A stretch of DNA of 64,000 bases from an uncultured Pseudomonadota bacterium (GTDB lineage Bacteria > Pseudomonadota > Alphaproteobacteria > Rs-D84): the NCBI GenBank assembly GCA_947307295.1, contig CAMZIQ010000002.1:80621-144620 (forward strand), written 5' to 3'. The position numbers and the translations under genes are program-made. A model generated the notes under the pieces. That model worked only from the letters and a program-made list of their open reading frames with translations, made no database searches and had not been told where the DNA came from. Below, in pieces: positions 5,283-23,528 of the stretch (within the stretch, counting starts at the first letter, position 1; every line of letters begins with the position of its first letter).

Positions 5283-5359
5283 TGGTGGGTGGTATTGGGC
5301 TCGAACCAACGACCTCCACGATGTCAACGTGACGCTCTAGCCAACTGAGCTAACCACCC
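5283..5359 (-). tRNA. tRNA-Val (anticodon GAC), CCA encoded
   Basis: Reverse complement folds as a cloverleaf: GGGTGGT acceptor, D-arm TAGCTCAGTTGGCTAGAGC, anticodon stem TCACG/CGTGG with loop TTGACAT, T-arm GGTCGTTGGTTCGAGCC, then ACCACCC-A-CCA. The 5' half is supplied by the left att repeat of the integrated element. Confidence 0.9.
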
Positions 5360-5364
5360 AAAGC
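5317..5364. repeat. att core copy 1 (attL; equals the 5' half of tRNA-Val(GAC) plus 5 bp)
   Basis: Exact 48-bp direct repeat. Forms part of the intact tRNA. Confidence 0.85.
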
Positions 5365-5370
5365 CACTGA

Positions 5371-5398
5371 ATTATAACATCTAAATTCTAGAATGCAA
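5371..5398 (-). promoter_or_regulatory. element-borne sigma70-like promoter for tRNA-Val (TTGCAT-16-TATAAT on the minus strand)
   Basis: Minus strand reads ttgcat-N16-tataat, ending 11 nt before tRNA +1. A homologous native promoter (TTGCAA-16-TATAAT) sits beside the orphan att copy at 23535..23562. Confidence 0.45.
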
Positions 5399-5511
5399 AT
5401 AAAATCGCTTTTTTTTGCTTTGGTGGCTTTTAGATATAATTTGCTATAGCATCCCCTTTTCACCTACAGTATACTCTAGAGCATGCTCCAAATATGCTCC
5501 TAAATGGTGTT

Positions 5512-5721
5512 TTAGTAGTGTTTATTGGCAAATTTATCTATTCTAATTCGTTTTCCCCATGAATTTACAACAATAACATCTTCACCACTATGAAAAACAT
5601 CACGAGGTTTGTGGAATTCGAGTCTTCGACCACCAATTTGTTTGACTATTACATCATCGTCTTTCCAACGGTATCTCAAATTGCTTTTTGTTTGCATGTT
5701 TAAACCTCTTACTATGATCAT
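5512..5721 (-). CDS. hypothetical small protein (69 aa) at the element left end
   Basis: ORF conserved in both element copies. No motif recognised. Confidence 0.35.
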   Translation of the reverse strand: MIIVRGLNMQTKSNLRYRWKDDDVIVKQIGGRRLEFHKPRDVFHSGEDVIVVNSWGKRIRIDKFANKHY

Positions 5722-5823
5722 TAGAACTAAATTTGGTGCAGATTTTTACCATAAAAGGAATAAAAACACACATTTTAGAGTATAAATATTGTGTAAACAC
5801 TGTTTTCGTGTTATAATTGCTAC

Positions 5824-6975
5824 ATGTTTTATGATGTACAACCGATTCAGAATAAAGAAGACTATAAAAGAATGTTGACTCTTGTAGGTCAGCTTTCGAA
5901 TCTTTTTTCTGAGAGCGATTGTCCTTATTTATCTTACAGGGCTCATGAAAATATATTTTGTAGATTTTTGGGAGCAGAGAATTTAGCCAGATCTGATTGT
6001 TCTGCTGATGCCAAGAAAGATAAAGTTGGTGTTGGTTTGAAAACGTGGATGGGTAACAATGATCAGAAGGTTGCAGAATTTGGGCGTTTGAAGAATAGTT
6101 ATGCTAGTCTTTCTGGAATTGAATTAGTAAAGAAAATAGCTGAATACAGGAATGAACGCATCAGAATTACAAAGAGGTTACATGGATTAGATTCTATGAT
6201 ATACCATGTTGTAAAACGTGTTCCCGGAGCTATGCAAATTCTTGAGGGTGTGTTTGACGAGATAAATATAGAAAACATCACATTATTATCAAACACTGGG
6301 AACGATAACAACACATACTTTACTGATGGAAAACACAAATATCATTTTAGCACATCAAAAAACACTCTGTATATGATATTTGATTTTCTTGAACAGTTGG
6401 ATTCTTTTGAGGTAAAAATATTAGAAAATCCTTATGAATGGTTGTCGAAAGCTACAGATAAAAAAACTATTTCCAAAGACATCAAGAAAGTTGTCAAAGC
6501 TATACAAGAGGAATCAGCAAGAAAACCCCAATTATGTTTGAGATTATATTCGGTAAAGAAGGGTGAAAGGTTTGTTGCTGAGAAGAGTGGTTTAAATCAG
6601 TGGAACGCATCAGGAAGAGCAAGGAATCCTAATGAGTTATATATACCATACCCTAAGGAAGACAGAGACAGAATTCCTAATTTCTTTCCACCAAGAGACA
6701 CACCTTTTACACTACATTTGCCAGATGGTACAGCTATTTCTGCTAAAGTGTGCCAAGCAGACAACAAGGCTATAATGAGTAATCCTAACAGTTTATTGGG
6801 CAAATGGCTTTTGCGAGATGTGTTTGAATTGCCAGATAATACTTTAGTAACATATCAAATGTTAGAAAGGTTTGGTATAGATAGTGTGATTTTCACTAGA
6901 AATGCAGAATTAGATTATTCCGTAGAATTTTCAGAATTGGGCACTTATGAACGTTTTTATGAGATTGAAGACTAA
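5824..6975 (+). CDS. candidate Type II restriction endonuclease (383 aa) directly upstream of the C5-MTase
   Basis: Context only: co-oriented and 45 bp upstream of a Dcm-type MTase on a mobile element. No unambiguous PD-(D/E)xK motif. TATAAT (5812-5817) ends 6 nt before the ATG, suggesting a leaderless transcript. Confidence 0.45.
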   Translation: MFYDVQPIQNKEDYKRMLTLVGQLSNLFSESDCPYLSYRAHENIFCRFLGAENLARSDCSADAKKDKVGVGLKTWMGNNDQKVAEFGRLKNSYASLSGIELVKKIAEYRNERIRITKRLHGLDSMIYHVVKRVPGAMQILEGVFDEINIENITLLSNTGNDNNTYFTDGKHKYHFSTSKNTLYMIFDFLEQLDSFEVKILENPYEWLSKATDKKTISKDIKKVVKAIQEESARKPQLCLRLYSVKKGERFVAEKSGLNQWNASGRARNPNELYIPYPKEDRDRIPNFFPPRDTPFTLHLPDGTAISAKVCQADNKAIMSNPNSLLGKWLLRDVFELPDNTLVTYQMLERFGIDSVIFTRNAELDYSVEFSELGTYERFYEIED

Positions 6976-7017
6976 AAGAGTTTTTGGTTTTTTTATTTTA
7001 TTTTTTTTTGTTTTATT

Positions 7018-7035
7018 TTATTGCGGCGTGCCGCA
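7018..7035. promoter_or_regulatory. perfect palindrome ATTGCGGCGTGCCGCAAT between the R and M genes (attenuator or operator candidate)
   Basis: 8-bp arms ttgcggcg/cgccgcaa, preceded by a long T-rich tract and followed by tttat. A TAAAAT -10-like box and RBS aggag for the MTase lie downstream. Confidence 0.35.
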
Positions 7036-8067
7036 ATTTATGATAGAGTAAAATATGGTTACAGACACAGGAGTTTAAATATGTATACAATAGCATCGTT
7101 TTTTGCCGGTGTTGGTGGCATAGACTTAGGTTTTGAACAAACTAATAAATGCAAAACAATCTATGCTAATGAGTTTGATAGTTATGCAAGTGAGACGTTT
7201 GAAAAAAATTTTCCCGATGTCAAAGTTGATCAACGAGATATACATGATGTGCCTGAAAAAGATATACCAAATGTTGATATTTTTATAGGCGGTTTTCCAT
7301 GTCAGGCATTTTCTATAGCCGGCTACAGACGTGGCTTTGAGGACGAGAAAGGTAGAGGAAATTTGTTTTTTGAGCTTGTTCGTATGATGAAGGCAAAAAA
7401 ACCTCGTGTTGCGTTGTTTGAAAATGTAAAAAATTTAGTTAGCCACGACAAAGGGAATACGTTTCGTGTGATTTGTAATGAGTTGGAAAAATTGGGTTAT
7501 TATTATACATATCATGTTTTGAATGCCATGGATTATGGGAATATGGCTCAAAACAGGGAACGTATATATATAGTAGCATTCAAAAATAAGAAAGATTTTA
7601 TAAAATTCAAATGGGCGAAGACGGTACCTCTAACAACAACAGTAAAAGATATTATAGATTTTACTAAGAAGGTAGACGATAGATTTTATTATACAAAGGG
7701 AAAATACAAGGGTGATATATATGAAAGGCTTGTTGAAGCTACAAAAGGTGACGATCCTAAAAATCCGGCAATATACCAATGGCGTAGAAAATATGTTAGA
7801 AAAAACAAAAGTGGAGTGGTGCCAACTCTAACAGCTAATCAAGGTGAAGGTGGTCATAATGTTTGTATTGTAAAAACAAAATATGGTTTGAGAAAAATGA
7901 CCCCTCAAGAATGCTTTAATACCCAAGGCTTTCCAAAAACGTTTTTGTTACCAAAGCAAAGCGATGCACGTTTATATAAGCAGGCTGGCAATTCTGTTTG
8001 TGTACCGGTTATACACAATATAGCAGAAAACATAGTAACAGCTTTGTCTGACGGCGAAGATAGCTAG
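7021..8067 (+). CDS. DNA (cytosine-5)-methyltransferase, Dcm/HhaI-like; true start probably ATG at 7081 (MYTIASFF) after RBS aggag
   Basis: Motif I FAGVGG, motif IV GGFPCQAFS, motif VI ENVKNL, motif VIII QNRERIYIVAF, motif X GNSV. Short TRD (~328 aa total) as in M.HhaI and M.HaeIII. Confidence 0.9.
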   Translation: MRRAAIYDRVKYGYRHRSLNMYTIASFFAGVGGIDLGFEQTNKCKTIYANEFDSYASETFEKNFPDVKVDQRDIHDVPEKDIPNVDIFIGGFPCQAFSIAGYRRGFEDEKGRGNLFFELVRMMKAKKPRVALFENVKNLVSHDKGNTFRVICNELEKLGYYYTYHVLNAMDYGNMAQNRERIYIVAFKNKKDFIKFKWAKTVPLTTTVKDIIDFTKKVDDRFYYTKGKYKGDIYERLVEATKGDDPKNPAIYQWRRKYVRKNKSGVVPTLTANQGEGGHNVCIVKTKYGLRKMTPQECFNTQGFPKTFLLPKQSDARLYKQAGNSVCVPVIHNIAENIVTALSDGEDS

Positions 8068-8224
8068 AGCTCTTAGTGCGTAGCTGAGATTGTGTAATTA
8101 TTGCAGGCACAACAAAAACTTGAAAAATGTAAGTAACGTGGTATATTTAATGTGAGTACTCGTAAGTGTGCTTGTGACATTAGATAGCGGAACGGGTTTG
8201 ATCACCCAAGTACTAGTCTAGATA

Positions 8225-8346
8225 GTGTCCCAACCGAATGGTTGGGATGCCTTGTGCTATACAATAGGTCTTACCGACTAAAAGCCTTGGGGTTCTGTAC
8301 TTGAATTGATCAACATCCCAACCGCCTAATAAAGCGGTTGTTTTTT
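8225..8346 (+). repeat. divergent copy (C) of a CCAACC-N-GGTTGG leader-like repeat ending in hairpin aaccgc-ctaataaa-gcggtt plus T-run, immediately 5' of the Nuc-like gene
   Basis: Same architecture as repeats A (23624..23816) and B (40478..40660): an internal palindrome cccaaccgaatggttggg, about 85 nt, then ccaaccgcc-loop-gcgg plus Ts. Confidence 0.5.
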
Positions 8347-8871
8347 ATGTTGAAAGCTACTGGATGTTTTTTGTTTTTGATTCTTATATTTGAATTGGTT
8401 GCATGTAATCAAAATGCTATACAACCAATTCAAGAAAACCATAATGATATAAAGATATTTTTTACTCCCGGCACAGAATGTGAAAATAATATTATTGAAA
8501 GAATAAACCAATCAAAAAAAGTGGACATAGCTGTTTATTCAATTACAAACCCTGCTATTACAAAGGCTATTATTTCTGCATATAAACATGGGGTAAATGT
8601 AAGAATTGTGACAGATAAAACACAAGCATCAGGAAAAAAATCATTAGTCTCTCAAATACGTGCTGCCGGAATACCTGTTTTGACTAATAAAAAACACAAG
8701 ATAGAACATAATAAGTTTGCTGTTTTTGACGATGTACATGTTGTTTCTGGATCTTATAACTGGACAACAAACGCAACCAACTATAACAGTGAAAATTGCC
8801 TATTCTTTGATCAACCAGACATGGAATATTCTAAAAGATTTGAGTATCTATGGAAGGTTTATAGTGAATAG
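8338..8871 (+). CDS. Nuc-like phospholipase-D-family (HKD) endonuclease with lipoprotein signal peptide; start likely ATG at 8347
   Basis: HNKFAVFDD HxK(x4)D motif followed by SGSYNWT (PLD/Nuc family). N-terminus MLKATGCFLFLILIFELVAC has the lipobox LVAC. Size ~175 aa, as for pKM101 Nuc. Confidence 0.8.
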   Translation: MFFMLKATGCFLFLILIFELVACNQNAIQPIQENHNDIKIFFTPGTECENNIIERINQSKKVDIAVYSITNPAITKAIISAYKHGVNVRIVTDKTQASGKKSLVSQIRAAGIPVLTNKKHKIEHNKFAVFDDVHVVSGSYNWTTNATNYNSENCLFFDQPDMEYSKRFEYLWKVYSE

Positions 8872-8872
8872 C

Positions 8873-10558
8873 CTAGTAGTATATTTTAAATCCATCGTCT
8901 GTACCCAACTCTTCTATCACATTTTGTATTCTTTTTATTGTTATTTGATCTACTGTTTGAAATCCTGCTTTGCCTTCTATGGATTTTGGATCAACTTTTT
9001 CTGGTATCTGAGAGACGATAAAGTTGAAATTTGTACCTTCTTGTTTGTTTTTTAGCAAGCAGGCATGACTAACTACAGATGCTCCACCATACATCTCAAA
9101 TATCACCCCGGATCGTTGCCCAATAAGATCCAAAAGCATAGTTATAAGTTTTACCGGTTTTTTTGATCCACTAAATGATATATGACCTTCATTTTGTAGT
9201 GTTGATTTAGTGTCTGAAACATCCCATATATCACCTAAAATAACAGAATTTTTCAAGGATCCATCTTCTTGTTTTATAAGGCTATCGCTAAAACGCAAAT
9301 ATAAGGCGTTTTTAGAGCCTTTTTCTAGTAACTTGCCCTTGTACTCGAATATAGGGTCTAAATCGTCTCTATGGGCATAAAAAACGCTTTTATAAGCATT
9401 TGATTTGGGGTAAACAGCTTTGTATAGGTCTTTTGCTATAGTATTGTACATATAATGTTTGAATTCTGGCTCTATTTTGATCATTTTTTCTATGTTTTTA
9501 GATAATAGTTCCATGTTGTGCTTTTTGAATAAGTTTATTATATGAGGTTGCTGTTTCAGGTGGTCAATCAAATATATTTTTTCGTGCACTCCAAAAGTCG
9601 AATTTGGTTTTTTGATAAGATGCTTAAAGGAGTTTTGCCAGTAAGTACTAGATGGAGTGTATAAACGTTGCAGGTGATTTACTTTTGATTTGTCTTTTGC
9701 ATATACTAATAAATAGGATTTTAGTCCGGGTAATCTGTATTGAGTCCTAGATACAATAATAGATGCAGGGGTGCTTGTTTTTATGACGATGTTGTTTATA
9801 AAGTTTTCTCTACCGTATACAGAATCCATAAGCACTTTTACATACGCCATTTCGTGCTCACTTACAGATAGAGCAACAAGTCCGTCTGGTTGAAGAAGTT
9901 TTTTTACTAATTCAAGGCGAGGAAAAAGGTGCTCTAAAAGCTGGCACGTTCCGTCAAATGAAGAATTATATGCTAATACAGCTCTGTTTGATGGCATGTT
10001 AAAGGGTATGTCCCCGTATGCAAGTAACAGTTTTCCTGAGTATTCTGGTAAGAGCCATTTACAAGCATCTATATTATCTTTCACTAGAACAAGATTTTTA
10101 GATTTTTCATTATTTGGTAAGGAGTTGAAAGATTTGTTTGGGTGAAATTTGACTTTTGTTGGAGTGTTTGTTAGTTTTTCTGCCCTTTCTCTTCCATTAA
10201 AGTATAGAAATAGTCCGTTTTTGTTTTGTGTTTGTGTGGTGTTGTTTTTAAAGTCTTCTAGCGATCCAATTATTCCTTCGTATCTATACAGTTGCCCCCA
10301 TTTTTTACCATTTTCAACTTTGCTTATAATTCCGGTGTTGCAGAGAAGTTTGAGTGTGTTGGTGATGGTTGGTCTTGGGATTTTTGTTTGTTTGCATAAA
10401 GTTGTGATGTCGAGTTGAGGGGTTTTGCAAAAAGTATCAAATATGGCTAATGCTGTGTTTTTTGATCTACCAATGTTTTCTATTTTTGCTCGATCTGTAG
10501 ATATAATTTCTGTATTGAATGTATTTATTGTTTTTCTGATGGTTTGTTTTTTTATCAT
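8873..10558 (-). CDS. winged-HTH fused to a divergent N6/N4 amino-methyltransferase-like domain (PF01555-like fold with degenerate catalytic and SAM motifs)
   Basis: N-terminal wHTH-like segment AIFDTFCKTPQLDITTLCKQTKIPRPTITNTLKLLCNTGIISK. Motif IV position reads LLLAYGDIPFNMP (DIPF rather than DPPY). Typical post-motif segments: LQPDGLVALSVSEH..., NNIVIKT, YLLVYAKDKSK. C-terminal motif I position reads GVIFEMYGGASVV rather than VLDPFxGSGTT. Confidence 0.65.
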   Translation of the reverse strand: MIKKQTIRKTINTFNTEIISTDRAKIENIGRSKNTALAIFDTFCKTPQLDITTLCKQTKIPRPTITNTLKLLCNTGIISKVENGKKWGQLYRYEGIIGSLEDFKNNTTQTQNKNGLFLYFNGRERAEKLTNTPTKVKFHPNKSFNSLPNNEKSKNLVLVKDNIDACKWLLPEYSGKLLLAYGDIPFNMPSNRAVLAYNSSFDGTCQLLEHLFPRLELVKKLLQPDGLVALSVSEHEMAYVKVLMDSVYGRENFINNIVIKTSTPASIIVSRTQYRLPGLKSYLLVYAKDKSKVNHLQRLYTPSSTYWQNSFKHLIKKPNSTFGVHEKIYLIDHLKQQPHIINLFKKHNMELLSKNIEKMIKIEPEFKHYMYNTIAKDLYKAVYPKSNAYKSVFYAHRDDLDPIFEYKGKLLEKGSKNALYLRFSDSLIKQEDGSLKNSVILGDIWDVSDTKSTLQNEGHISFSGSKKPVKLITMLLDLIGQRSGVIFEMYGGASVVSHACLLKNKQEGTNFNFIVSQIPEKVDPKSIEGKAGFQTVDQITIKRIQNVIEELGTDDGFKIYY

Positions 10559-10577
10559 GGTACGCTCTCTCTTGAAT

Positions 10578-10604
10578 CATTATTTTTTATAGCAGAAAAT
10601 AATG
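10578..10604. promoter_or_regulatory. 9-bp-stem inverted repeat cattatttt-N9-aaaataatg 20 bp upstream of the MTase-like gene
   Basis: Perfect inverted repeat seen directly. Lies in the divergent intergenic region between the MTase-like gene (-) and the AlpA-like gene (+). Confidence 0.3.
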
Positions 10605-10692
10605 AATAATGCCAATCTAAAAAAAATAACAAAGTATACATTTTTATCATAATTTTGAGTTCTAATATACATACAAAAAAGGATCTATACTA

Positions 10693-10875
10693 ATGCTAAC
10701 AAAACCAGAATTCACACAAGAAAAACTATTGACGGTTACAGAGGCAGCTAATATTTTGAATTTAAAACCTTCTACCTTATACCGTATCAAACAAAATGAA
10801 AGGTCTCCCAAAAAGGTCAAAGTTTGTGGCAGGCTTTATTTTACTCTTTCTTCTATAAACAACATAATGGGCTAA
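10693..10875 (+). CDS. AlpA-like HTH DNA-binding protein (prophage regulatory / excisionase family)
   Basis: LLTVTEAANILNLKPSTLYR helix-turn-helix and the GRLYF / SINNI C-terminal pattern of the AlpA family. RBS aagga 8 nt upstream. Convergently overlaps the 3' end of the Rep gene by ~100 bp. Confidence 0.65.
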   Translation: MLTKPEFTQEKLLTVTEAANILNLKPSTLYRIKQNERSPKKVKVCGRLYFTLSSINNIMG

Positions 10876-11709
10876 TCTCTTTTCTAATATCTTTCTCAAT
10901 TTGTTTATGGGGTTTGGTAAGAGTAATTCGCCACGTTGTTTGAGCCATAAAGCAAAGATAATGACGGTTTTCAGTTGCTTTATATCAAAATAATTCACTT
11001 TATGTGGGTTGAATCTCTCTTTGCCAAACCAAGTCTTCATTGTAAACAGCTCACTACCTTCGTTGATATGTGGATCTTCGTTGTCTTTTAATTCTTTGAC
11101 AAGGTAAGCACAAATTCCCTCTTTATCATAAACACATCTCAAATCAAAAACGGTCTTATAAAACTTATATTTATCAACGATTTTACTAATTGCATCACAT
11201 AATCTGTAGCCAATATATTCGTCATGATCTGTACTTTTGAAGAGAATATGAACATGCCACCAAAAATCATTCTTACCATGTTCCATTACACCAACACATT
11301 GTAAAGCGTTTCTAGTCCAATGATTTTTTTGTTCTATGGCAAGAGTTTGAATTTCTTTGAATAATTTTTTATAAGATTTTTTAGCGTCTTCTCTGTTTCT
11401 TGTTCTTCTAAAACCGGATTGGGTGCATCTGGGTAGTTTGATTGTCAAAAGATAAGAATAGTCTTCTTGCATTAGTTGTTTTTGCCAATATTTCCTAGAG
11501 TCTTGATATTCAGTTTGGTGATTCCTATAAAAACCATTCAATTCTTCATTTATCTCATTTGTAAATTTAGACATGATTTCCTCTAGCGTTCTAAACCTTC
11601 TTCTTATTTTCAATCCACGTTCTTCCACATAAAACGTTCTTCTTTTTATTGTTTTACTTAGTTGGGAATGTTGAACATCTAAATTAGAAAATAAATCATA
11701 ACCATTCAT
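10777..11709 (-). CDS. HUH-superfamily rolling-circle Rep / MobT-like relaxase candidate (310 aa)
   Basis: WWHVHILF (HUH motif) followed by Tyr-containing segments (DEYIGYRL, ICAYLVKELK), as in Rep_trans/MobT proteins. Divergent from the regulator gene across a promoter/operator region. Confidence 0.55.
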   Translation of the reverse strand: MNGYDLFSNLDVQHSQLSKTIKRRTFYVEERGLKIRRRFRTLEEIMSKFTNEINEELNGFYRNHQTEYQDSRKYWQKQLMQEDYSYLLTIKLPRCTQSGFRRTRNREDAKKSYKKLFKEIQTLAIEQKNHWTRNALQCVGVMEHGKNDFWWHVHILFKSTDHDEYIGYRLCDAISKIVDKYKFYKTVFDLRCVYDKEGICAYLVKELKDNEDPHINEGSELFTMKTWFGKERFNPHKVNYFDIKQLKTVIIFALWLKQRGELLLPNPINKLRKILEKRLAHYVVYRRKSKIKPATNFDLFGRPFILFDTV

Positions 11710-11971: not shown

Positions 11972-12029
11972 AGTGTATACACTTTGTGTATAAAAAATAC
12001 TTGACATCGGTACACAAAAAGTGTATACT
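11972..12029 (+). promoter_or_regulatory. switch region: consensus sigma70 promoter (TTGACA 12001-12006, 17 bp spacer, TATACT 12024-12029) with GTGTAYAC operator repeats, including the 12-bp palindrome AGTGTATACACT at 11972-11983
   Basis: Sequence read directly. Operator-like motifs at 11972-83, 11986-93, 12008-15 (inverted) and 12019-29 overlap the -35 and -10 boxes. RBS aaagaggtg then ATG of the HTH regulator. Confidence 0.6.
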
Positions 12030-12058: not shown

Positions 12059-12601
12059 TTGATGGAAAAATATAGAACAAAGTTTGGTACATGGATCTCT
12101 GTATTTTGTGCCAGACATGGATTAAACATCGCAAGGGCTGCTTATGAATTGGGGTTGGCTCCTACTACATTGGCATCTATTGTAGCTGGAAGACATCCTT
12201 TACCGGTGTTCTTGCGTGAAAATATCATAGCGACTTTCGGAAGATATTTGTCCGGAACAGATATTGCCGAAATGGATCAAAGCATTGTTGATACAGAGGC
12301 AGGAGCTGTGATTGTGTCAAGGAACTATAAAAAATACGTCAGTGCACAAACAGTGAATGACAAAGAATGGTGTCTAAAACTGATGGATGTAATGGCTAAA
12401 GCGACCAATAAAATGAACAAGGAGGAATCTGAAGAAATTTATGCTCGTTTGCAAGAGATTGCTGAACGCCCTGCACCAGTATCTATAGAATTAGACAAAG
12501 ATATAGATATTGAAACGCTGAGACAAGATATTCGCAGACGGTATAAAGACCCTGTAAAAACAGAACAAATTGTAGAAAAAATAAAAGAACTGAGACAATA
12601 A
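12059..12601 (+). CDS. XRE/Cro-like HTH transcriptional regulator (element repressor candidate), acidic coiled-coil C-terminus
   Basis: N-terminal HTH WISVFCARHGLNIARAAYELGLAPTTLASIVAGRH. Immediately downstream of the operator-rich promoter. Confidence 0.6.
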   Translation: MMEKYRTKFGTWISVFCARHGLNIARAAYELGLAPTTLASIVAGRHPLPVFLRENIIATFGRYLSGTDIAEMDQSIVDTEAGAVIVSRNYKKYVSAQTVNDKEWCLKLMDVMAKATNKMNKEESEEIYARLQEIAERPAPVSIELDKDIDIETLRQDIRRRYKDPVKTEQIVEKIKELRQ

Positions 12602-12715: not shown

Positions 12716-14029
12716 GTGACTAAAATGAGCAAACAAGAAAATATTACACAAACATTAGTAAATAAAATCGTATACAACATCGAAAAAGGCAACACGTCTG
12801 AATTATGTGATGTGTGGGATTCTAAGACATCAGGTTTTGGTATACGAGTTGGCAAAACCAATGCATCTTTTATTTTCAAATATAGAAATAAGGCAAACAA
12901 AGCCCAAACAAAAACATTTGGTAAAATAACCGAAATGTCTGTTGCTGAGGCTAGAAATCTATTGGACGCATTTAAACCAACAATAAAATCTGATCTTGCA
13001 ACAATTCAGAAAACTAATAAGAAATATACGGTGAAAGATTTATGTGAAAAATATCTTGCGGAACACCAAACTCGTGCAACAACGAAAAAACAAGACGAAA
13101 GCAGGATTGAAAGACACGTCTTGCCAACACTTGGCAACATACCATTACATTTATTGACAGCTAAAGATATTATGAATGCACAAACGGCTATTGCAAACGG
13201 TGATAAAAAAATAATTATAGCAGGACATAAAAACCCAAATAATCCACATTCATATATCAAAGTATCTGGCGGTCAAGGTGCTGCTAAAAGGGTTATGGAA
13301 ATGCTGAAAACAATTTTGAATTTTGCAGAAGACGAAGAGTTGATTGAAAAAAATCCTATGAATTCTCGTAAATTCAAAAAAATCAAATACGATAAAAAAG
13401 AAACAGCGTATCTCGAAAACAACAATTATGAAAATCTTGGTTATTTGTTGAAAAAGCATGAACAGCAATCAAAGAAAAGCAATCAAAGTGTGTTGTTTAT
13501 AAAATTATTGGCTTTGACGGGCTGTCGTAAAGGTGAATTATTAGGTCTTACTTGGAATCGAGTAGATTTTACCAACCAATATTTTGTGTTTGCTAAAACA
13601 AAAACTACAGGGGAACAAAAACGATATTTTGGATCTGCAGCAAAAAGATTATTGTTAGATATGCACCAAAAAGCTACATCCAACTACTTGTTCCCTAGTA
13701 TTACAAAAACAGGTACACATAGAAAAGATTGTTTGAGAGCTTTAAAGCAGATTTGTAAAACAGCACAAGAAAACAAAAGTCAATTTGATGCAATACAAAA
13801 ACTAACCCTACATGGTCTTAGACATTCATTTTCAACAATGTGTAACACCCTCTCTTTTCCCGATGTAATTAGAGAAGGACTTATGGGGCACAAGAATGGT
13901 GGTGTACAATATATTTATACACACAATACACATAACACAATGATTGAACATGCAGATAAAGTATCAGAAAGTATCAACACGTTGTTAGATACGGGATGTA
14001 AAAAAGCAGAATTGGAAAACAACAACTAA
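12716..14029 (+). CDS. int: tyrosine recombinase / phage integrase (P4-like, DUF4102 N-terminus); start possibly ATG 12725
   Basis: Box I LTGCRKGELLGLTWNRVD (Arg), box II HGLRHSF (H-x-x-R), and catalytic Tyr in HKNGGVQYIYTH. Adjacent to the tRNA att site. Confidence 0.92.
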   Translation: MTKMSKQENITQTLVNKIVYNIEKGNTSELCDVWDSKTSGFGIRVGKTNASFIFKYRNKANKAQTKTFGKITEMSVAEARNLLDAFKPTIKSDLATIQKTNKKYTVKDLCEKYLAEHQTRATTKKQDESRIERHVLPTLGNIPLHLLTAKDIMNAQTAIANGDKKIIIAGHKNPNNPHSYIKVSGGQGAAKRVMEMLKTILNFAEDEELIEKNPMNSRKFKKIKYDKKETAYLENNNYENLGYLLKKHEQQSKKSNQSVLFIKLLALTGCRKGELLGLTWNRVDFTNQYFVFAKTKTTGEQKRYFGSAAKRLLLDMHQKATSNYLFPSITKTGTHRKDCLRALKQICKTAQENKSQFDAIQKLTLHGLRHSFSTMCNTLSFPDVIREGLMGHKNGGVQYIYTHNTHNTMIEHADKVSESINTLLDTGCKKAELENNN

Positions 14030-14041: not shown

Positions 14042-14263
14042 ATGAAATTTATAACAGAAAGAGAATTAGCTAAATTTTTATCGAATGAATATGGTTTGCC
14101 AACATCGAAAAAATCATTAGAAAAATTACGTGCAAAAGGTAAAGCACCAAATTTTAGAGTTTGGGGTGGAAAAATTGTATATGAAAAGCAAGATGTACAG
14201 ACATGGCTCAACAATCAAATGGCGATTTGTTACAAGTACACAATGCCAAAATATAGCATATAA
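14042..14263 (+). CDS. excisionase-like HTH protein (HTH_17/AlpA-Xis family)
   Basis: ITERELAKFL ... NFRVWGGKIVYEKQDVQTWL pattern. Immediately follows the integrase, with RBS gaggtaaaaaaATG. Confidence 0.55.
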   Translation: MKFITERELAKFLSNEYGLPTSKKSLEKLRAKGKAPNFRVWGGKIVYEKQDVQTWLNNQMAICYKYTMPKYSI

Positions 14264-14273: not shown

Positions 14274-14291
14274 ATGCTCCCAATATGCTCC
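14274..14291 (+). promoter_or_regulatory. pair of ATGCTCC direct repeats 11 bp apart at the element right end (putative integrase/Xis arm-type sites); equivalent pair at the left end, 5483-5500
   Basis: atgctcc at 14274-80 and 14285-91. atgctcc at 5483-89 and 5494-5500. Same orientation and spacing (one helical turn) at both arms. Confidence 0.35.
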
Positions 14292-14340
14292 AAAATGATA
14301 AAAACCACAAAACTAACACAAACACTAGAGAATCAAAAAA

Positions 14341-14367
14341 CCCCGGAAATCCGGGGTAAATCTTTTT
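14341..14367 (+). terminator. Rho-independent terminator after xis (ccccgg-aaat-ccgggg then T-run)
   Basis: Hairpin and tctttttgtt read directly. Last feature before att. Confidence 0.5.
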
Positions 14368-14398: not shown

Positions 14399-14446
14399 CA
14401 CGATGTCAACGTGACGCTCTAGCCAACTGAGCTAACCACCCAAAGC
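14399..14446. repeat. att core copy 2 (junction between the two element units; partial tRNA-Val 5' half)
   Basis: Exact 48-bp direct repeat. Preceded by the element right end and followed by the element left end. Confidence 0.85.
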
Positions 14447-14593
14447 CACTGAATTATAACATCTAAATTCTAGAATGCAAATAAAATCGCTTTTTTTTGC
14501 TTTGGTGGCTTTTAGATATAATTTGCTATAGCATCCCCTTTTCACCTACAGTATACTCTAGAGCATGCTCCAAATATGCTCCTAAATGGTGTT

Positions 14594-17306: not shown

Positions 17307-17428
17307 GTGTCCCAACCGAATGGTTGGGATGCCTTGTGCTATACAATAGGTCTTACCGACTAAAAGCCTTGGGGTTCTGTACTTGAATTGATCAACATCC
17401 CAACCGCCTAATAAAGCGGTTGTTTTTT
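17307..17428 (+). repeat. leader-like repeat C (copy 2) ending in a terminator hairpin at the Nuc-like start
   Basis: Identical to 8225..8346 at +9082. Confidence 0.5.
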
Positions 17429-17953
17429 ATGTTGAAAGCTACTGGATGTTTTTTGTTTTTGATTCTTATATTTGAATTGGTTGCATGTAATCAAAATGCT
17501 ATACAACCAATTCAAGAAAACCATAATGATATAAAGATATTTTTTACTCCCGGCACAGAATGTGAAAATAATATTATTGAAAGAATAAACCAATCAAAAA
17601 AAGTGGACATAGCTGTTTATTCAATTACAAACCCTGCTATTACAAAGGCTATTATTTCTGCATATAAACATGGGGTAAATGTAAGAATTGTGACAGATAA
17701 AACACAAGCATCAGGAAAAAAATCATTAGTCTCTCAAATACGTGCTGCCGGAATACCTGTTTTGACTAATAAAAAACACAAGATAGAACATAATAAGTTT
17801 GCTGTTTTTGACGATGTACATGTTGTTTCTGGATCTTATAACTGGACAACAAACGCAACCAACTATAACAGTGAAAATTGCCTATTCTTTGATCAACCAG
17901 ACATGGAATATTCTAAAAGATTTGAGTATCTATGGAAGGTTTATAGTGAATAG
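17420..17953 (+). CDS. Nuc-like PLD-family endonuclease lipoprotein (copy 2)
   Basis: Identical translation at offset +9082. Confidence 0.8.
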   Translation: MFFMLKATGCFLFLILIFELVACNQNAIQPIQENHNDIKIFFTPGTECENNIIERINQSKKVDIAVYSITNPAITKAIISAYKHGVNVRIVTDKTQASGKKSLVSQIRAAGIPVLTNKKHKIEHNKFAVFDDVHVVSGSYNWTTNATNYNSENCLFFDQPDMEYSKRFEYLWKVYSE

Positions 17954-17954
17954 C

Positions 17955-19640
17955 CTAGTAGTATATTTTAAATCCATCGTCTGTACCCAACTCTTCTATC
18001 ACATTTTGTATTCTTTTTATTGTTATTTGATCTACTGTTTGAAATCCTGCTTTGCCTTCTATGGATTTTGGATCAACTTTTTCTGGTATCTGAGAGACGA
18101 TAAAGTTGAAATTTGTACCTTCTTGTTTGTTTTTTAGCAAGCAGGCATGACTAACTACAGATGCTCCACCATACATCTCAAATATCACCCCGGATCGTTG
18201 CCCAATAAGATCCAAAAGCATAGTTATAAGTTTTACCGGTTTTTTTGATCCACTAAATGATATATGACCTTCATTTTGTAGTGTTGATTTAGTGTCTGAA
18301 ACATCCCATATATCACCTAAAATAACAGAATTTTTCAAGGATCCATCTTCTTGTTTTATAAGGCTATCGCTAAAACGCAAATATAAGGCGTTTTTAGAGC
18401 CTTTTTCTAGTAACTTGCCCTTGTACTCGAATATAGGGTCTAAATCGTCTCTATGGGCATAAAAAACGCTTTTATAAGCATTTGATTTGGGGTAAACAGC
18501 TTTGTATAGGTCTTTTGCTATAGTATTGTACATATAATGTTTGAATTCTGGCTCTATTTTGATCATTTTTTCTATGTTTTTAGATAATAGTTCCATGTTG
18601 TGCTTTTTGAATAAGTTTATTATATGAGGTTGCTGTTTCAGGTGGTCAATCAAATATATTTTTTCGTGCACTCCAAAAGTCGAATTTGGTTTTTTGATAA
18701 GATGCTTAAAGGAGTTTTGCCAGTAAGTACTAGATGGAGTGTATAAACGTTGCAGGTGATTTACTTTTGATTTGTCTTTTGCATATACTAATAAATAGGA
18801 TTTTAGTCCGGGTAATCTGTATTGAGTCCTAGATACAATAATAGATGCAGGGGTGCTTGTTTTTATGACGATGTTGTTTATAAAGTTTTCTCTACCGTAT
18901 ACAGAATCCATAAGCACTTTTACATACGCCATTTCGTGCTCACTTACAGATAGAGCAACAAGTCCGTCTGGTTGAAGAAGTTTTTTTACTAATTCAAGGC
19001 GAGGAAAAAGGTGCTCTAAAAGCTGGCACGTTCCGTCAAATGAAGAATTATATGCTAATACAGCTCTGTTTGATGGCATGTTAAAGGGTATGTCCCCGTA
19101 TGCAAGTAACAGTTTTCCTGAGTATTCTGGTAAGAGCCATTTACAAGCATCTATATTATCTTTCACTAGAACAAGATTTTTAGATTTTTCATTATTTGGT
19201 AAGGAGTTGAAAGATTTGTTTGGGTGAAATTTGACTTTTGTTGGAGTGTTTGTTAGTTTTTCTGCCCTTTCTCTTCCATTAAAGTATAGAAATAGTCCGT
19301 TTTTGTTTTGTGTTTGTGTGGTGTTGTTTTTAAAGTCTTCTAGCGATCCAATTATTCCTTCGTATCTATACAGTTGCCCCCATTTTTTACCATTTTCAAC
19401 TTTGCTTATAATTCCGGTGTTGCAGAGAAGTTTGAGTGTGTTGGTGATGGTTGGTCTTGGGATTTTTGTTTGTTTGCATAAAGTTGTGATGTCGAGTTGA
19501 GGGGTTTTGCAAAAAGTATCAAATATGGCTAATGCTGTGTTTTTTGATCTACCAATGTTTTCTATTTTTGCTCGATCTGTAGATATAATTTCTGTATTGA
19601 ATGTATTTATTGTTTTTCTGATGGTTTGTTTTTTTATCAT
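17955..19640 (-). CDS. wHTH plus degenerate amino-MTase-like protein (copy 2)
   Basis: Identical translation at offset +9082. Confidence 0.65.
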   Translation of the reverse strand: MIKKQTIRKTINTFNTEIISTDRAKIENIGRSKNTALAIFDTFCKTPQLDITTLCKQTKIPRPTITNTLKLLCNTGIISKVENGKKWGQLYRYEGIIGSLEDFKNNTTQTQNKNGLFLYFNGRERAEKLTNTPTKVKFHPNKSFNSLPNNEKSKNLVLVKDNIDACKWLLPEYSGKLLLAYGDIPFNMPSNRAVLAYNSSFDGTCQLLEHLFPRLELVKKLLQPDGLVALSVSEHEMAYVKVLMDSVYGRENFINNIVIKTSTPASIIVSRTQYRLPGLKSYLLVYAKDKSKVNHLQRLYTPSSTYWQNSFKHLIKKPNSTFGVHEKIYLIDHLKQQPHIINLFKKHNMELLSKNIEKMIKIEPEFKHYMYNTIAKDLYKAVYPKSNAYKSVFYAHRDDLDPIFEYKGKLLEKGSKNALYLRFSDSLIKQEDGSLKNSVILGDIWDVSDTKSTLQNEGHISFSGSKKPVKLITMLLDLIGQRSGVIFEMYGGASVVSHACLLKNKQEGTNFNFIVSQIPEKVDPKSIEGKAGFQTVDQITIKRIQNVIEELGTDDGFKIYY

Positions 19641-19774
19641 GGTACGCTCTCTCTTGAATCATTATTTTTTATAGCAGAAAATAATGAATAATGCCAATCT
19701 AAAAAAAATAACAAAGTATACATTTTTATCATAATTTTGAGTTCTAATATACATACAAAAAAGGATCTATACTA

Positions 19775-19957
19775 ATGCTAACAAAACCAGAATTCACACA
19801 AGAAAAACTATTGACGGTTACAGAGGCAGCTAATATTTTGAATTTAAAACCTTCTACCTTATACCGTATCAAACAAAATGAAAGGTCTCCCAAAAAGGTC
19901 AAAGTTTGTGGCAGGCTTTATTTTACTCTTTCTTCTATAAACAACATAATGGGCTAA
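19775..19957 (+). CDS. AlpA-like HTH protein (copy 2)
   Basis: Identical translation at offset +9082. Confidence 0.65.
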   Translation: MLTKPEFTQEKLLTVTEAANILNLKPSTLYRIKQNERSPKKVKVCGRLYFTLSSINNIMG

Positions 19958-20791
19958 TCTCTTTTCTAATATCTTTCTCAATTTGTTTATGGGGTTTGGT
20001 AAGAGTAATTCGCCACGTTGTTTGAGCCATAAAGCAAAGATAATGACGGTTTTCAGTTGCTTTATATCAAAATAATTCACTTTATGTGGGTTGAATCTCT
20101 CTTTGCCAAACCAAGTCTTCATTGTAAACAGCTCACTACCTTCGTTGATATGTGGATCTTCGTTGTCTTTTAATTCTTTGACAAGGTAAGCACAAATTCC
20201 CTCTTTATCATAAACACATCTCAAATCAAAAACGGTCTTATAAAACTTATATTTATCAACGATTTTACTAATTGCATCACATAATCTGTAGCCAATATAT
20301 TCGTCATGATCTGTACTTTTGAAGAGAATATGAACATGCCACCAAAAATCATTCTTACCATGTTCCATTACACCAACACATTGTAAAGCGTTTCTAGTCC
20401 AATGATTTTTTTGTTCTATGGCAAGAGTTTGAATTTCTTTGAATAATTTTTTATAAGATTTTTTAGCGTCTTCTCTGTTTCTTGTTCTTCTAAAACCGGA
20501 TTGGGTGCATCTGGGTAGTTTGATTGTCAAAAGATAAGAATAGTCTTCTTGCATTAGTTGTTTTTGCCAATATTTCCTAGAGTCTTGATATTCAGTTTGG
20601 TGATTCCTATAAAAACCATTCAATTCTTCATTTATCTCATTTGTAAATTTAGACATGATTTCCTCTAGCGTTCTAAACCTTCTTCTTATTTTCAATCCAC
20701 GTTCTTCCACATAAAACGTTCTTCTTTTTATTGTTTTACTTAGTTGGGAATGTTGAACATCTAAATTAGAAAATAAATCATAACCATTCAT
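19859..20791 (-). CDS. HUH Rep/MobT-like protein (copy 2)
   Basis: Identical translation at offset +9082. Confidence 0.55.
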   Translation of the reverse strand: MNGYDLFSNLDVQHSQLSKTIKRRTFYVEERGLKIRRRFRTLEEIMSKFTNEINEELNGFYRNHQTEYQDSRKYWQKQLMQEDYSYLLTIKLPRCTQSGFRRTRNREDAKKSYKKLFKEIQTLAIEQKNHWTRNALQCVGVMEHGKNDFWWHVHILFKSTDHDEYIGYRLCDAISKIVDKYKFYKTVFDLRCVYDKEGICAYLVKELKDNEDPHINEGSELFTMKTWFGKERFNPHKVNYFDIKQLKTVIIFALWLKQRGELLLPNPINKLRKILEKRLAHYVVYRRKSKIKPATNFDLFGRPFILFDTV

Positions 20792-21053
20792 TTATTACCT
20801 TCTTGGTTTACTTTGTTTAATGAATGATCAACACACCTTTTGTTTTGGGTGCTAATCAGTTTGAATCAAAAAGCCCGGATTTATAAGGGTTGAAGCGTAA
20901 TCCAATCCAACAGGAGCGATTTGATTTATTTCCTAGAACTGTTTTTTTTCATAAAGTTGTAAAATTTTTCATTCTTTGTGATTTTTTTGAGGAACGATTC
21001 GTAAAAAAAGACAAATTCGATACAAAAATAGGTGTTTTTTCTGGCAGGAGGCA

Positions 21054-21111
21054 AGTGTATACACTTTGTGTATAAAAAATACTTGACATCGGTACACAAA
21101 AAGTGTATACT
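21054..21111 (+). promoter_or_regulatory. switch region copy 2 (TTGACA 21083-21088, TATACT 21106-21111, GTGTAYAC operators)
   Basis: Identical to 11972..12029 at +9082. Confidence 0.6.
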
Positions 21112-21140
21112 GTAGCTGTAACAAAAACAAAAGAGGTGTT

Positions 21141-21683
21141 TTGATGGAAAAATATAGAACAAAGTTTGGTACATGGATCTCTGTATTTTGTGCCAGACAT
21201 GGATTAAACATCGCAAGGGCTGCTTATGAATTGGGGTTGGCTCCTACTACATTGGCATCTATTGTAGCTGGAAGACATCCTTTACCGGTGTTCTTGCGTG
21301 AAAATATCATAGCGACTTTCGGAAGATATTTGTCCGGAACAGATATTGCCGAAATGGATCAAAGCATTGTTGATACAGAGGCAGGAGCTGTGATTGTGTC
21401 AAGGAACTATAAAAAATACGTCAGTGCACAAACAGTGAATGACAAAGAATGGTGTCTAAAACTGATGGATGTAATGGCTAAAGCGACCAATAAAATGAAC
21501 AAGGAGGAATCTGAAGAAATTTATGCTCGTTTGCAAGAGATTGCTGAACGCCCTGCACCAGTATCTATAGAATTAGACAAAGATATAGATATTGAAACGC
21601 TGAGACAAGATATTCGCAGACGGTATAAAGACCCTGTAAAAACAGAACAAATTGTAGAAAAAATAAAAGAACTGAGACAATAA
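21141..21683 (+). CDS. XRE-like HTH regulator (copy 2)
   Basis: Identical translation at offset +9082. Confidence 0.6.
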   Translation: MMEKYRTKFGTWISVFCARHGLNIARAAYELGLAPTTLASIVAGRHPLPVFLRENIIATFGRYLSGTDIAEMDQSIVDTEAGAVIVSRNYKKYVSAQTVNDKEWCLKLMDVMAKATNKMNKEESEEIYARLQEIAERPAPVSIELDKDIDIETLRQDIRRRYKDPVKTEQIVEKIKELRQ

Positions 21684-21797
21684 AAAATAAAGTGGGTGAA
21701 CAAGCTGCAACCTGCTCACCCTAACAAACACCAAACGAGTTGGATGTCTGCCACAAAGTCATTTTAGCTCGTTTGGATCAAAAATCAAGAACCAAAG

Positions 21798-23111
21798 GTG
21801 ACTAAAATGAGCAAACAAGAAAATATTACACAAACATTAGTAAATAAAATCGTATACAACATCGAAAAAGGCAACACGTCTGAATTATGTGATGTGTGGG
21901 ATTCTAAGACATCAGGTTTTGGTATACGAGTTGGCAAAACCAATGCATCTTTTATTTTCAAATATAGAAATAAGGCAAACAAAGCCCAAACAAAAACATT
22001 TGGTAAAATAACCGAAATGTCTGTTGCTGAGGCTAGAAATCTATTGGACGCATTTAAACCAACAATAAAATCTGATCTTGCAACAATTCAGAAAACTAAT
22101 AAGAAATATACGGTGAAAGATTTATGTGAAAAATATCTTGCGGAACACCAAACTCGTGCAACAACGAAAAAACAAGACGAAAGCAGGATTGAAAGACACG
22201 TCTTGCCAACACTTGGCAACATACCATTACATTTATTGACAGCTAAAGATATTATGAATGCACAAACGGCTATTGCAAACGGTGATAAAAAAATAATTAT
22301 AGCAGGACATAAAAACCCAAATAATCCACATTCATATATCAAAGTATCTGGCGGTCAAGGTGCTGCTAAAAGGGTTATGGAAATGCTGAAAACAATTTTG
22401 AATTTTGCAGAAGACGAAGAGTTGATTGAAAAAAATCCTATGAATTCTCGTAAATTCAAAAAAATCAAATACGATAAAAAAGAAACAGCGTATCTCGAAA
22501 ACAACAATTATGAAAATCTTGGTTATTTGTTGAAAAAGCATGAACAGCAATCAAAGAAAAGCAATCAAAGTGTGTTGTTTATAAAATTATTGGCTTTGAC
22601 GGGCTGTCGTAAAGGTGAATTATTAGGTCTTACTTGGAATCGAGTAGATTTTACCAACCAATATTTTGTGTTTGCTAAAACAAAAACTACAGGGGAACAA
22701 AAACGATATTTTGGATCTGCAGCAAAAAGATTATTGTTAGATATGCACCAAAAAGCTACATCCAACTACTTGTTCCCTAGTATTACAAAAACAGGTACAC
22801 ATAGAAAAGATTGTTTGAGAGCTTTAAAGCAGATTTGTAAAACAGCACAAGAAAACAAAAGTCAATTTGATGCAATACAAAAACTAACCCTACATGGTCT
22901 TAGACATTCATTTTCAACAATGTGTAACACCCTCTCTTTTCCCGATGTAATTAGAGAAGGACTTATGGGGCACAAGAATGGTGGTGTACAATATATTTAT
23001 ACACACAATACACATAACACAATGATTGAACATGCAGATAAAGTATCAGAAAGTATCAACACGTTGTTAGATACGGGATGTAAAAAAGCAGAATTGGAAA
23101 ACAACAACTAA
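21798..23111 (+). CDS. int: tyrosine integrase (copy 2)
   Basis: Identical translation at offset +9082. Confidence 0.92.
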   Translation: MTKMSKQENITQTLVNKIVYNIEKGNTSELCDVWDSKTSGFGIRVGKTNASFIFKYRNKANKAQTKTFGKITEMSVAEARNLLDAFKPTIKSDLATIQKTNKKYTVKDLCEKYLAEHQTRATTKKQDESRIERHVLPTLGNIPLHLLTAKDIMNAQTAIANGDKKIIIAGHKNPNNPHSYIKVSGGQGAAKRVMEMLKTILNFAEDEELIEKNPMNSRKFKKIKYDKKETAYLENNNYENLGYLLKKHEQQSKKSNQSVLFIKLLALTGCRKGELLGLTWNRVDFTNQYFVFAKTKTTGEQKRYFGSAAKRLLLDMHQKATSNYLFPSITKTGTHRKDCLRALKQICKTAQENKSQFDAIQKLTLHGLRHSFSTMCNTLSFPDVIREGLMGHKNGGVQYIYTHNTHNTMIEHADKVSESINTLLDTGCKKAELENNN

Positions 23112-23123
23112 AGAGGTAAAAAA

Positions 23124-23345
23124 ATGAAATTTATAACAGAAAGAGAATTAGCTAAATTTTTATCGAATGAATATGGTTTGCCAACATCGAAAAAATCATT
23201 AGAAAAATTACGTGCAAAAGGTAAAGCACCAAATTTTAGAGTTTGGGGTGGAAAAATTGTATATGAAAAGCAAGATGTACAGACATGGCTCAACAATCAA
23301 ATGGCGATTTGTTACAAGTACACAATGCCAAAATATAGCATATAA
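23124..23345 (+). CDS. excisionase-like HTH protein (copy 2)
   Basis: Identical translation at offset +9082. Confidence 0.55.
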   Translation: MKFITERELAKFLSNEYGLPTSKKSLEKLRAKGKAPNFRVWGGKIVYEKQDVQTWLNNQMAICYKYTMPKYSI

Positions 23346-23422
23346 AAAAAGCAAAATGCTCCCAATATGCTCCAAAATGATAAAAACCACAAAACTAACA
23401 CAAACACTAGAGAATCAAAAAA

Positions 23423-23449
23423 CCCCGGAAATCCGGGGTAAATCTTTTT
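23423..23449 (+). terminator. Rho-independent terminator after xis (copy 2)
   Basis: Identical to 14341..14367. Confidence 0.5.
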
Positions 23450-23480
23450 GTTGGGGGGCTAAAATCTTCATAACGAATTT

Positions 23481-23528
23481 CACGATGTCAACGTGACGCT
23501 CTAGCCAACTGAGCTAACCACCCAAAGC
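23481..23528. repeat. att core copy 3 (attR; orphan tRNA-Val 5' half next to the native upstream flank)
   Basis: Exact 48-bp direct repeat. Downstream sequence diverges from the element (gaaagtattataacaactt...). Confidence 0.85.

Follow-up and report, generated by a model that had tools for sequence, protein, structure and literature searches.

A 9,082-bp integrative element in tRNA-Val(GAC) assembled as a perfect tandem dimer in a ruminant-gut alphaproteobacterium

A window of 64 kb from an uncultured alphaproteobacterium contains one 9-kb segment twice in direct succession beside a tRNA gene, which raises the question whether two copies of an integrative element physically reside at this site and, if so, how the array was formed. 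In a self-comparison of the window, positions 5317-14398 and 14399-23480 agree over 9082 bp with 0 mismatches; the exact match spans 9130 bp, ends at 23528, and shows no extension to the left of 5317. The 48-mer core CACGATGTCAACGTGACGCTCTAGCCAACTGAGCTAACCACCCAAAGC begins at 5317, 14399, and 23481, N bases are absent, and all ORFs of unit 1 recur at +9082. An exact repeat of 9.1 kb cannot have arisen by chance. The first-pass annotation had described a perfect tandem dimer of a 9082-bp unit, with the ORFs of 5512-14263 repeated 9082 bp downstream, an identical 48-bp core at the three positions, and flanks consisting of metG/tRNA-Val and OMP-mreB. All of this held up, the flanks by gene annotation of both sides (metG/queH on the left; an OMP gene, mreB, and rnpA on the right). 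In the assembled sequence, the two units are arranged head to tail with a complete attP-type junction between them (Table 1).

Table 1. Features of the tandem units and their borders (window coordinates).
Feature	Position	Strand	Copy 2	Remarks
Intact tRNA-Val(GAC) at attL	5283..5359	-		ARAGORN; Rfam 63.9 bits
attL core, 48 bp	5317..5364			tRNA nt 1-43 plus 5 nt of leader
Middle core	14399..14446			P arm left, P' arm right; complete attP-type junction (P-O-P')
attR core	23481..23528			truncated tRNA 5' part, native promoter still attached
Inferred strand-exchange region ACGATGTCAACGT	5318..5330		14400-14412, 23482-23494	anticodon stem-loop, tRNA nt 30-42
Element-borne promoter	5371..5399	-		TTTGCA-17-TATAAT, TG extension; -10 box ending 11 nt ahead of tRNA nt 1
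Element-borne promoter, copy 2	14453..14481	-		faces truncated tRNA 5' part at middle junction
Native tRNA-Val promoter	23535..23563	-		TTTGCA-17-TATAAT, TG extension; displaced to attR
P' arm, two tandem arm-type sites	5483..5504	+	14565-14586	ATGCTCCNAAW
P arm, two tandem arm-type sites	14274..14295	+	23356-23377
69-aa ORF	5512..5721	-	14594-14803	no family match; also called in relatives
Type II restriction endonuclease, NgoFVII-like	5824..6975	+	14906-16057
C5 cytosine DNA methyltransferase	7021..8067	+	16103-17149	partner of the endonuclease
Small PLD-family nuclease	8338..8871	+	17420-17953	NucT/DrmC-like
Mod-like (type III) N6/N4 DNA methyltransferase	8873..10558	-	17955-19640	561 aa
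HTH_17/excisionase-like ORF	10693..10875	+	19775-19957	60 aa
Divergent HUH Rep	10777..11709	-	19859-20791	310 aa
18-nt inverted repeat	11975..12028		21057-21110	divergent intergenic region of rep and the 180-aa gene
180-aa protein	12059..12601	+	21141-21683	no family match
Tyrosine integrase	12725..14029	+	21807-23111	arm-binding N-terminal domain
Xis/AlpA-like HTH protein	14042..14263	+	23124-23345	73 aa
Bidirectional terminator hairpin ACCCCGGAAATCCGGGGT	14340..14357		23422-23439	between xis and core; from folding

The direct repeats at both unit ends are part of tRNA-Val(GAC), nt 1-43. At attL, the 3' part of the tRNA (5283-5316) is chromosomal, and the 5' part (5317-5359) lies within the repeated core. 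Because the block of identity covers the 5' portion of the tRNA, the element is situated upstream of the tRNA-Val gene, whose promoter and 5' half it replaces. It uses the reverse of the orientation usual for tRNA integrators, a point that the earlier annotation had missed; with high confidence, the unit is regarded as a genuine integrative element with reverse-orientation tRNA integration. The crossover is probably confined to the anticodon stem-loop rather than involving the whole 48 bp, as host/element polymorphisms segregate in the hybrid attL and attR sites of L001, and as the boundaries in L021 and L028 indicate. Predicted arm-type sites flank every core on both sides, two per arm: the motif occurs eight times in the 64 kb (0.49 expected), every one adjoining a core, and the arrangement is kept in L021.

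Native and element-borne promoters share the same register, and the native promoter is identical in the empty site of a conspecific strain (L010). The element-borne promoter is predicted to drive the reconstituted tRNA-Val gene, and the terminator ACCCCGGAAATCCGGGGT would halt the transcript starting from a tRNA promoter before it enters xis and int in antisense. Zhao and Williams reportedly described reverse-orientation tRNA integrators in bacteria in 2002. Elements of this kind, which were called rare, sit upstream of the tRNA gene and provide the promoter from which the recombinant tRNA is expressed (PMC6563490, PMC8371274). The window element shares the upstream position and a predicted element promoter with bacterial examples and with the pTN3-like integrases of Thermococcales. 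It differs in its hosts, ruminant-gut Alphaproteobacteria, and in its tRNA promoter: a dedicated sequence resembling the host tRNA promoter would be used rather than the integrase promoter, because int is directed toward the core from the opposite side.

The unit encodes a site-specific recombination module together with defense-related cargo. The integrase displays SAM-like and arm-binding domains and matches PF00589 (2.5e-19) as well as the phrog_1 integrase (6e-49); its ATG at 12725 is also the start in public gene calls, and the exact protein is found in 9 public contigs. Directly upstream of int, the 180-aa protein is always encoded in relatives. The 73-aa Xis-like protein falls short of the HTH_17 cut-off (23.4 against 27 bits) and matches the phrog_66 excisionase at 2e-4. 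A second small HTH-type ORF, of 60 aa, is convergent with rep and overlaps its 3' end, a layout that recurs in L024. The endonuclease (Pfam RE_NgoFVII_C, 4e-13; PADLOC REase_II, 4e-89) adjoins the C5 methyltransferase (Pfam, 8e-86; TIGR00675), and both form a type II restriction-modification (R-M) system of the NgoFVII-like type. The PLD nuclease belongs to the conserved backbone, and the Mod-like methyltransferase (EcoP15I Mod, 3e-22) has an extra N-terminal region and is encoded without a Res partner. Domain and PADLOC matches support the cargo proposed earlier, namely R-M, nuclease, and methyltransferase genes. Exact-protein look-ups with the window's endonuclease, Rep, MetG, OMP, and a GTG-start version of the integrase retrieved no public record. 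Among the unit's ORFs, neither conjugative transfer domains (FtsK-like Tra, type IV secretion system) nor matches to phage structural genes (PHROGs) were found; since transfer and structural genes are absent, an identity as ICE, AICE, or prophage was rejected. A CTX-phi-type tandem prophage was dismissed as well: there is no phage structural match, and the element carries its own tyrosine integrase instead of depending on XerCD for integration.

The Rep protein shows an HUH nuclease fold with a beta-alpha-beta-beta-alpha-beta-alpha core, and H152-V153-H154 and Y202-x-x-K205 are invariant in 10 sequences. Rep of the window itself has no Pfam hit. Among its relatives, no Pfam family other than PF23343 (REP_ORF2-G2P) was hit more than once; their scores are 19-32 bits, and two of the 15 relatives scanned reach the cut-off of 27.8 (P0009, 27.9; P0084, 31.9). 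Searches of PDB sequences, with the single sequence or a profile, gave chance-level hits only, PHROGs and NCBIfam yielded nothing, and no match was obtained in plasmid and phage collections. The HUH Rep named in the first-pass annotation is retained as a candidate, in view of its motifs, its fold, and the PF23343 hits of its relatives. The family is small, with 51 cluster representatives among 1.84 billion, and was always seen inside integrative elements, together with tyrosine or serine recombinases. With the PF23343 HUH initiators of ssDNA phages and plasmids, it has the HUH and YxxK motifs and the core fold in common; the window Rep differs by the missing Pfam hit, the small family size, and the confinement to integrative elements. 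The inverted repeat upstream of rep (z -3.15) overlaps a TTGACA-17-TATACT promoter and may serve as an operator or as an origin hairpin.

Comparison with related genomes, as suggested by the earlier annotation, revealed empty and single-copy states in other assemblies, which bears out an integrase element in tRNA-Val(GAC). In the conspecific strain L010, the site is empty and reads left flank-core-right flank. In other species, single copies occupy the same site; one such species has a backbone 98% identical, although its chromosomal flank is only ~75% identical; a near-identical element at a shared site in such divergent flanks indirectly supports excision and integration, and the element appears to be recently mobile. 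Divergence between the window unit and its closest public relatives amounts to 0.6-3%, and cargo cassettes vary among relatives. The scan of GTDB genomes with the integrase gave a yak-omasum MAG as sole match, and scans of JGI metagenome contigs and IMG/VR returned no integrase relatives. The other public instances are single-copy or end in a contig break at the core; all are seemingly short-read assemblies, which are unable to represent a tandem, and none of the retrieved public loci contains a P-O-P' junction. Circular-looking Logan contigs of ~9.09 kb proved to be unitigs interrupted within the core and are therefore uninformative on copy number.

The following course of events is proposed. 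The unit is a site-specific integrative element of 9,082 bp whose hosts are uncultured Alphaproteobacteria of the ruminant gut. Its arm-binding tyrosine integrase presumably catalyzes recombination between attP and the anticodon stem-loop of tRNA-Val(GAC). In contrast to the majority of tRNA integrators, it brings along the tRNA's 5' part together with a copy of the promoter. Once the element is inserted, a functional tRNA gene would combine the 3' half from the host with the 5' half and promoter from the element, and the host promoter and 5' half would stay behind at attR as a dead stub, followed by the element's bidirectional terminator. Rep may copy, and possibly mobilise, the excised circle, and the R-M cassette appears exchangeable on the element backbone. 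For the two identical head-to-tail units with an attP-type junction between them, an integrase-mediated origin seems most likely. A sibling circle, abundant from Rep-driven replication after excision, could integrate into attL or attR, which needs a chromosome that still or again holds a copy; equivalently, a dimeric circle could integrate, or sister chromosomes could undergo attL x attR exchange. The event would be very recent, or the array would be continually re-formed. Excision, Rep activity, and promoter activity are deduced here from sequence features. That the dimer is physically real is considered slightly favored, and the same modest preference applies to the full account, including a real tandem formed at tRNA-Val by an integrative element. 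Two copies is the minimum number if the reads were shorter than ~18 kb.

The strongest competitor is an assembly artefact, to which a substantial though smaller probability is assigned. Here, one integrated copy, possibly accompanied by excised or replicating circles, would have been doubled by an assembler that walked the chromosome-core-unit-core loop twice or merged two element-ended contigs via the 48-bp core. The zero divergence and the position of the junction exactly at the core fit a double traversal of the loop, and all contigs spanning both flanks in other samples contain one copy. Several public contigs of the element stop inside the core, so that the core acts as a branching node in assembly graphs, and an active Rep could lift the depth of the element to about twice that of the flanks. 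On the other hand, assemblers more often collapse than expand perfect tandem repeats, genuine tandems of comparable elements are well documented, and the sequence is otherwise clean, with 50 substitutions and only 3 single-base indels relative to the closest relative. If reads across circle junctions caused the artefact, the element would still be active. As a separate observation, a perfect direct repeat of 9 kb is unstable under homologous recombination, which counts against a tandem.

A real duplication might also have formed independently of the integrase, by RecA-dependent unequal sister-chromatid exchange at the 48-bp attL/attR repeats, possibly retained because a higher dosage of R-M or methyltransferase genes was selected. 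This process gives the same structure as the one observed and has a known precedent in the reported amplification and de-amplification of the clc element; it is nevertheless deemed quite improbable, as 48 bp is near the RecA minimum, a dedicated recombinase and full core and arm sites are present at three junctions, and dosage selection is without support in the sequence. Even less credence is given to two independent acquisitions from different donors, the second entering attL or attR of the first, in the manner of SXT/R391 arrays, which arise when a second element enters an already-occupied cell (PMC5812530). Cargo cassettes vary and relatives diverge within the population to the extent given above, whereas the two units are identical at all 9082 positions, which makes separate donors very unlikely, and this scenario was discarded.

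Tandem arrays of integrase elements are known for SXT/R391 and for the clc element with its P4-family integrase; they contain attP-type junctions, form by a tyrosine integrase reusing attL/attR, are unstable, and consist of identical or hybrid copies (PMC5812530, PMC6563490). The window element resembles them in the head-to-tail arrangement at one site and the attP-type junction, but comprises only 9 kb, lacks conjugation and phage genes, encodes an HUH Rep, and is known as an array from one assembly. Tandem lambda lysogens represent a further case of such arrays. Elements of the pSAM2 type (AICEs) combine int, xis, and a rolling-circle Rep, integrate at tRNA genes, and replicate after excision. 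The window element has a comparable module of int, an xis-like gene, and a candidate rolling-circle Rep and likewise integrates at a tRNA gene; it differs in the lack of an FtsK-like transfer gene and of the usual 3' tRNA orientation, in its Rep family, and in the host phylum.

Doubled copies are a known phenomenon, and current concepts are left unchanged by these findings. If the dimer is real, a defense-gene island was caught just after self-copying within one chromosome, with a doubled dose of the R-M pair, the nuclease, and the orphan methyltransferase. It is thought improbable that the tandem state is functional rather than accidental, allowing the element to spread without the cell losing the R-M genes; post-segregational killing would then be avoided. 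Excision could remove one unit and leave the other in place, or, by analogy with CTX-phi, nicking by the HUH Rep at one origin could be followed by termination at the next, 9,082 bp away, which would free unit-length circles without excision. Regardless of the dimer, the locus presents an integrase clade that targets the 5' half of tRNA-Val and supplies its own tRNA promoter, an arrangement reported to be rare, a small HUH Rep family that had no name before and is restricted to integrative elements, and R-M cassettes swapped on a 98% identical backbone that moved between ruminant-gut species.

Two copies of a 9,082-bp unit (5317-14398 and 14399-23480) follow one another in the window and are identical across their whole length. 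The exact match covers 9,130 bp and reaches 23528, and its left limit at 5317 is abrupt. A 48-mer, CACGATG...CCCAAAGC, begins at 5317, 14399, and 23481, and each ORF of unit 1 is found again at +9082; the exact tandem repeat with a shared 48-bp core, described in the first-pass annotation, is thus borne out.

Features of the first unit and of its chromosomal surroundings
Feature	Position	Strand	Remark
Left flank			fabD-like, queH, metG
tRNA-Val(GAC), intact	5283-5359	-	ARAGORN and Rfam agree
NgoFVII-type type II endonuclease	5824-6975
C5 methyltransferase	7021-8067		paired with the NgoFVII-type endonuclease
Small PLD-family nuclease	8338-8871
Mod-like N6/N4 methyltransferase, 561 aa	8873-10558	-	without Res partner
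HTH_17 ORF, 60 aa	10693-10875	+	convergent with rep; ~100 nt overlap at rep 3' end
rep, 310 aa	10777-11709	-
180-aa protein	12059-12601		without family match
Tyrosine integrase, 434 aa from ATG 12725	12725-14029		arm-binding domain
Xis/AlpA-like HTH protein, 73 aa	14042-14263
Predicted transcript	14330-14446	-	same at 23412-23528
Bidirectional terminator	14340-14357
Right flank			OMP gene, mreB, rnpA, accBC
Intergenic element, copy 1	23627-23800	+	just 5' of OMP beta-barrel gene
OMP beta-barrel gene	23843-24493		surface-protein-like
Flg_new-repeat gene	39642-40514		surface-protein-like
Intergenic element, copy 2	40486-40657	-	just 5' of Flg_new-repeat gene
tRNA-Val(TAC)	43458-43534	-	no adjoining element; 5' half only ~61% similar to core

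At least nine public contigs from metagenomes of the ruminant gut encode this integrase without a single residue changed; one of them belongs to the yak-omasum MAG 'Alphaproteobacteria bacterium RGIG9702', which is the GTDB representative. Contigs spanning both flanks (L001, L003/L011) carry a single copy between metG/tRNA-Val and mreB. The backbone of these copies is 98.3-98.4% identical to the window, whereas the accC region, their only alignable chromosomal flank, is ~75% identical, which indicates that the element moved recently between species, into the same site. MEGAHIT contig L010 encodes an MreB identical to that of the window, matches the two window flanks at 96.5-98.3% identity, and runs directly from the OMP gene via tRNA-Val to metG. 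Its site, consisting exactly of the attL left flank, the core, and the attR right flank, is the empty attB of the same species. The comparison with related genomes foreseen beforehand thereby confirms the integrase element proposed at tRNA-Val(GAC), and lends good support to the element and its presumed activity.

Eight matches to the motif ATGCTCCNAAW lie in the 64-kb window (0.49 expected), all of them as tandem pairs at a distance of 104-140 bp from a core, with one pair per side. The motif is kept at both ends of the element in L021, a relative with a 63% identical Rep, and would represent the putative arm-type sites to be expected where the integrase has an arm-binding domain. The middle junction, with P arm, core, and P' arm, therefore amounts to a complete attP.

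As the tRNA gene lies on the minus strand, the core comprises tRNA nt 1-43 and 5 nt of leader; the element sits upstream of the gene, an orientation overlooked earlier. At the single-copy locus L001, the host tRNA is slightly unlike the element copy, with the change between host-type and element-type bases lying between core positions 1 and 15. This would map the exchange to ACGATGTCAACGT, the anticodon stem-loop, known as the classic symmetric sublocation that tyrosine integrases use (PMC8371274). Just inside the left end of the element, TTTGCA-17-TATAAT with a TG extension is found, the -10 box of which ends 11 nt before tRNA nt 1, in the same register as the native tRNA promoter now stranded at attR. 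Insertion would yield a working tRNA gene composed of the host 3' half and the 5' half and predicted promoter of the element. L021 shares the upstream, 5'-half layout, and so do the loci L028-L031, which are more distant (integrase P0020, 60% identical) and where attR likewise shows the native promoter, the tRNA 5' half, and then the element right end; the layout thus characterizes the whole clade. According to reviews, it is rare for a bacterial element to target the 5' half and to supply the promoter itself (PMC6563490, PMC8371274). The bidirectional terminator lies behind the truncated tRNA 5' half, both at the middle junction and at attR. The predicted transcript runs from this 5' half into element DNA that still weakly resembles the 3' half of the tRNA, and folds as a tRNA-like pseudo-structure, then a terminator hairpin (z -2.9). 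An attP descended from a whole captured tRNA-Val gene is suggested.

Regarding the origin of the dimer, 50 substitutions and three single-base indels separate the window unit from its closest public copy (L006), and a further copy (L017) is 2.8% different, versus no differing position between the window copies. Two separate imports are rejected on these grounds, and the copies are siblings of one lineage. The low indel count against L006 suggests a clean consensus sequence. A second circle could have entered attL or attR through the integrase, a dimeric circle could have been inserted, or attL and attR could have recombined between sister chromosomes; all three routes yield exactly the observed structure, and the sequence cannot separate them. 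The same structure would result from an assembler walking the core-unit-core loop twice or merging two contigs through the core, an origin to which we assign a considerable probability, if clearly short of even. However, collapse of perfect tandems by assemblers tends to be more frequent than expansion, and elements of this type commonly form real arrays, which are documented for SXT/R391 (PMC5812530) and for tyrosine-recombinase elements generally (PMC6563490); for the clc element, tandem amplification and de-amplification figure in a title that the former review cites (PMC5812530). For these two reasons we lean slightly towards a physical tandem, a state not novel in kind and as yet unproven. 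Two copies are a lower bound if reads were shorter than ~18 kb. Other public instances, which have one copy or a contig end at the core, appear to be short-read assemblies and are uninformative on the dimer. In a speculative reading of low probability, the tandem state would serve the HUH Rep or the integrase for releasing copies while the cell always keeps its restriction-modification genes.

Integrative plasmids of the pSAM2 type combine int, xis, and a rolling-circle Rep module. The window element resembles them in this module but lacks any transfer gene, and a CTX-phi-like prophage is rejected as the element contains no phage genes. The element is a small restriction-modification island, probably replicative or mobilisable, that uses reverse-orientation tRNA integration. 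Concerning the designation 'HUH Rep', fold and motif assignment are supported, while a replication initiator and a mobilisation relaxase are not distinguishable. An exhaustive profile search among 1.84 billion proteins retrieved only 51 cluster representatives of this family and no match in plasmid or phage records; in all cases with visible genomic context, the gene is part of an integrative element and adjoins a tyrosine or serine recombinase. The convergent HTH_17/rep arrangement recurs in L024 (10823-11011), a distant relative with serine recombinases and a 42% identical Rep, which argues for a conserved gene pair.

The restriction-modification cassette is exchanged on the 98% identical backbone (window 5512-8337 vs L001 1654-5621), the swap point lying between a left-end ORF (61-69 aa) and the PLD nuclease gene. 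The NgoFVII-like endonuclease and C5 methyltransferase are found in the window, L006, and L017; L001-L005 and L011-L016 harbor two Dam-like (MethyltransfD12) methyltransferases along with a 462-aa protein. In the sister elements L028-L031, which occupy the same tRNA-Val 5' half, Rep and the type II cassette are replaced by an AAA_14/DUF4143 ATPase together with a complete type I restriction-modification system (HsdR/S/M); all elements have in common the module of int, xis, and the 180-aa protein. The Mod-like methyltransferase, with the small PLD nuclease as sole neighbour, carries an additional N-terminal region of ~150 aa with weak winged-helix, DnaD-like or replication-initiator matches (PHROG, 1e-3) and a SoFic-like match (PADLOC, 4e-7).

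Outside the element, a conserved intergenic element of ~175 nt is present in two copies. It can adopt alternative CTCCAACC/GGTTGGAG pairings and gives a sub-threshold Rfam match to sRNA-Xcc1 (39.6 bits vs a gathering score of 53); as it also occurs in the empty-site strain L010, it is chromosomal.
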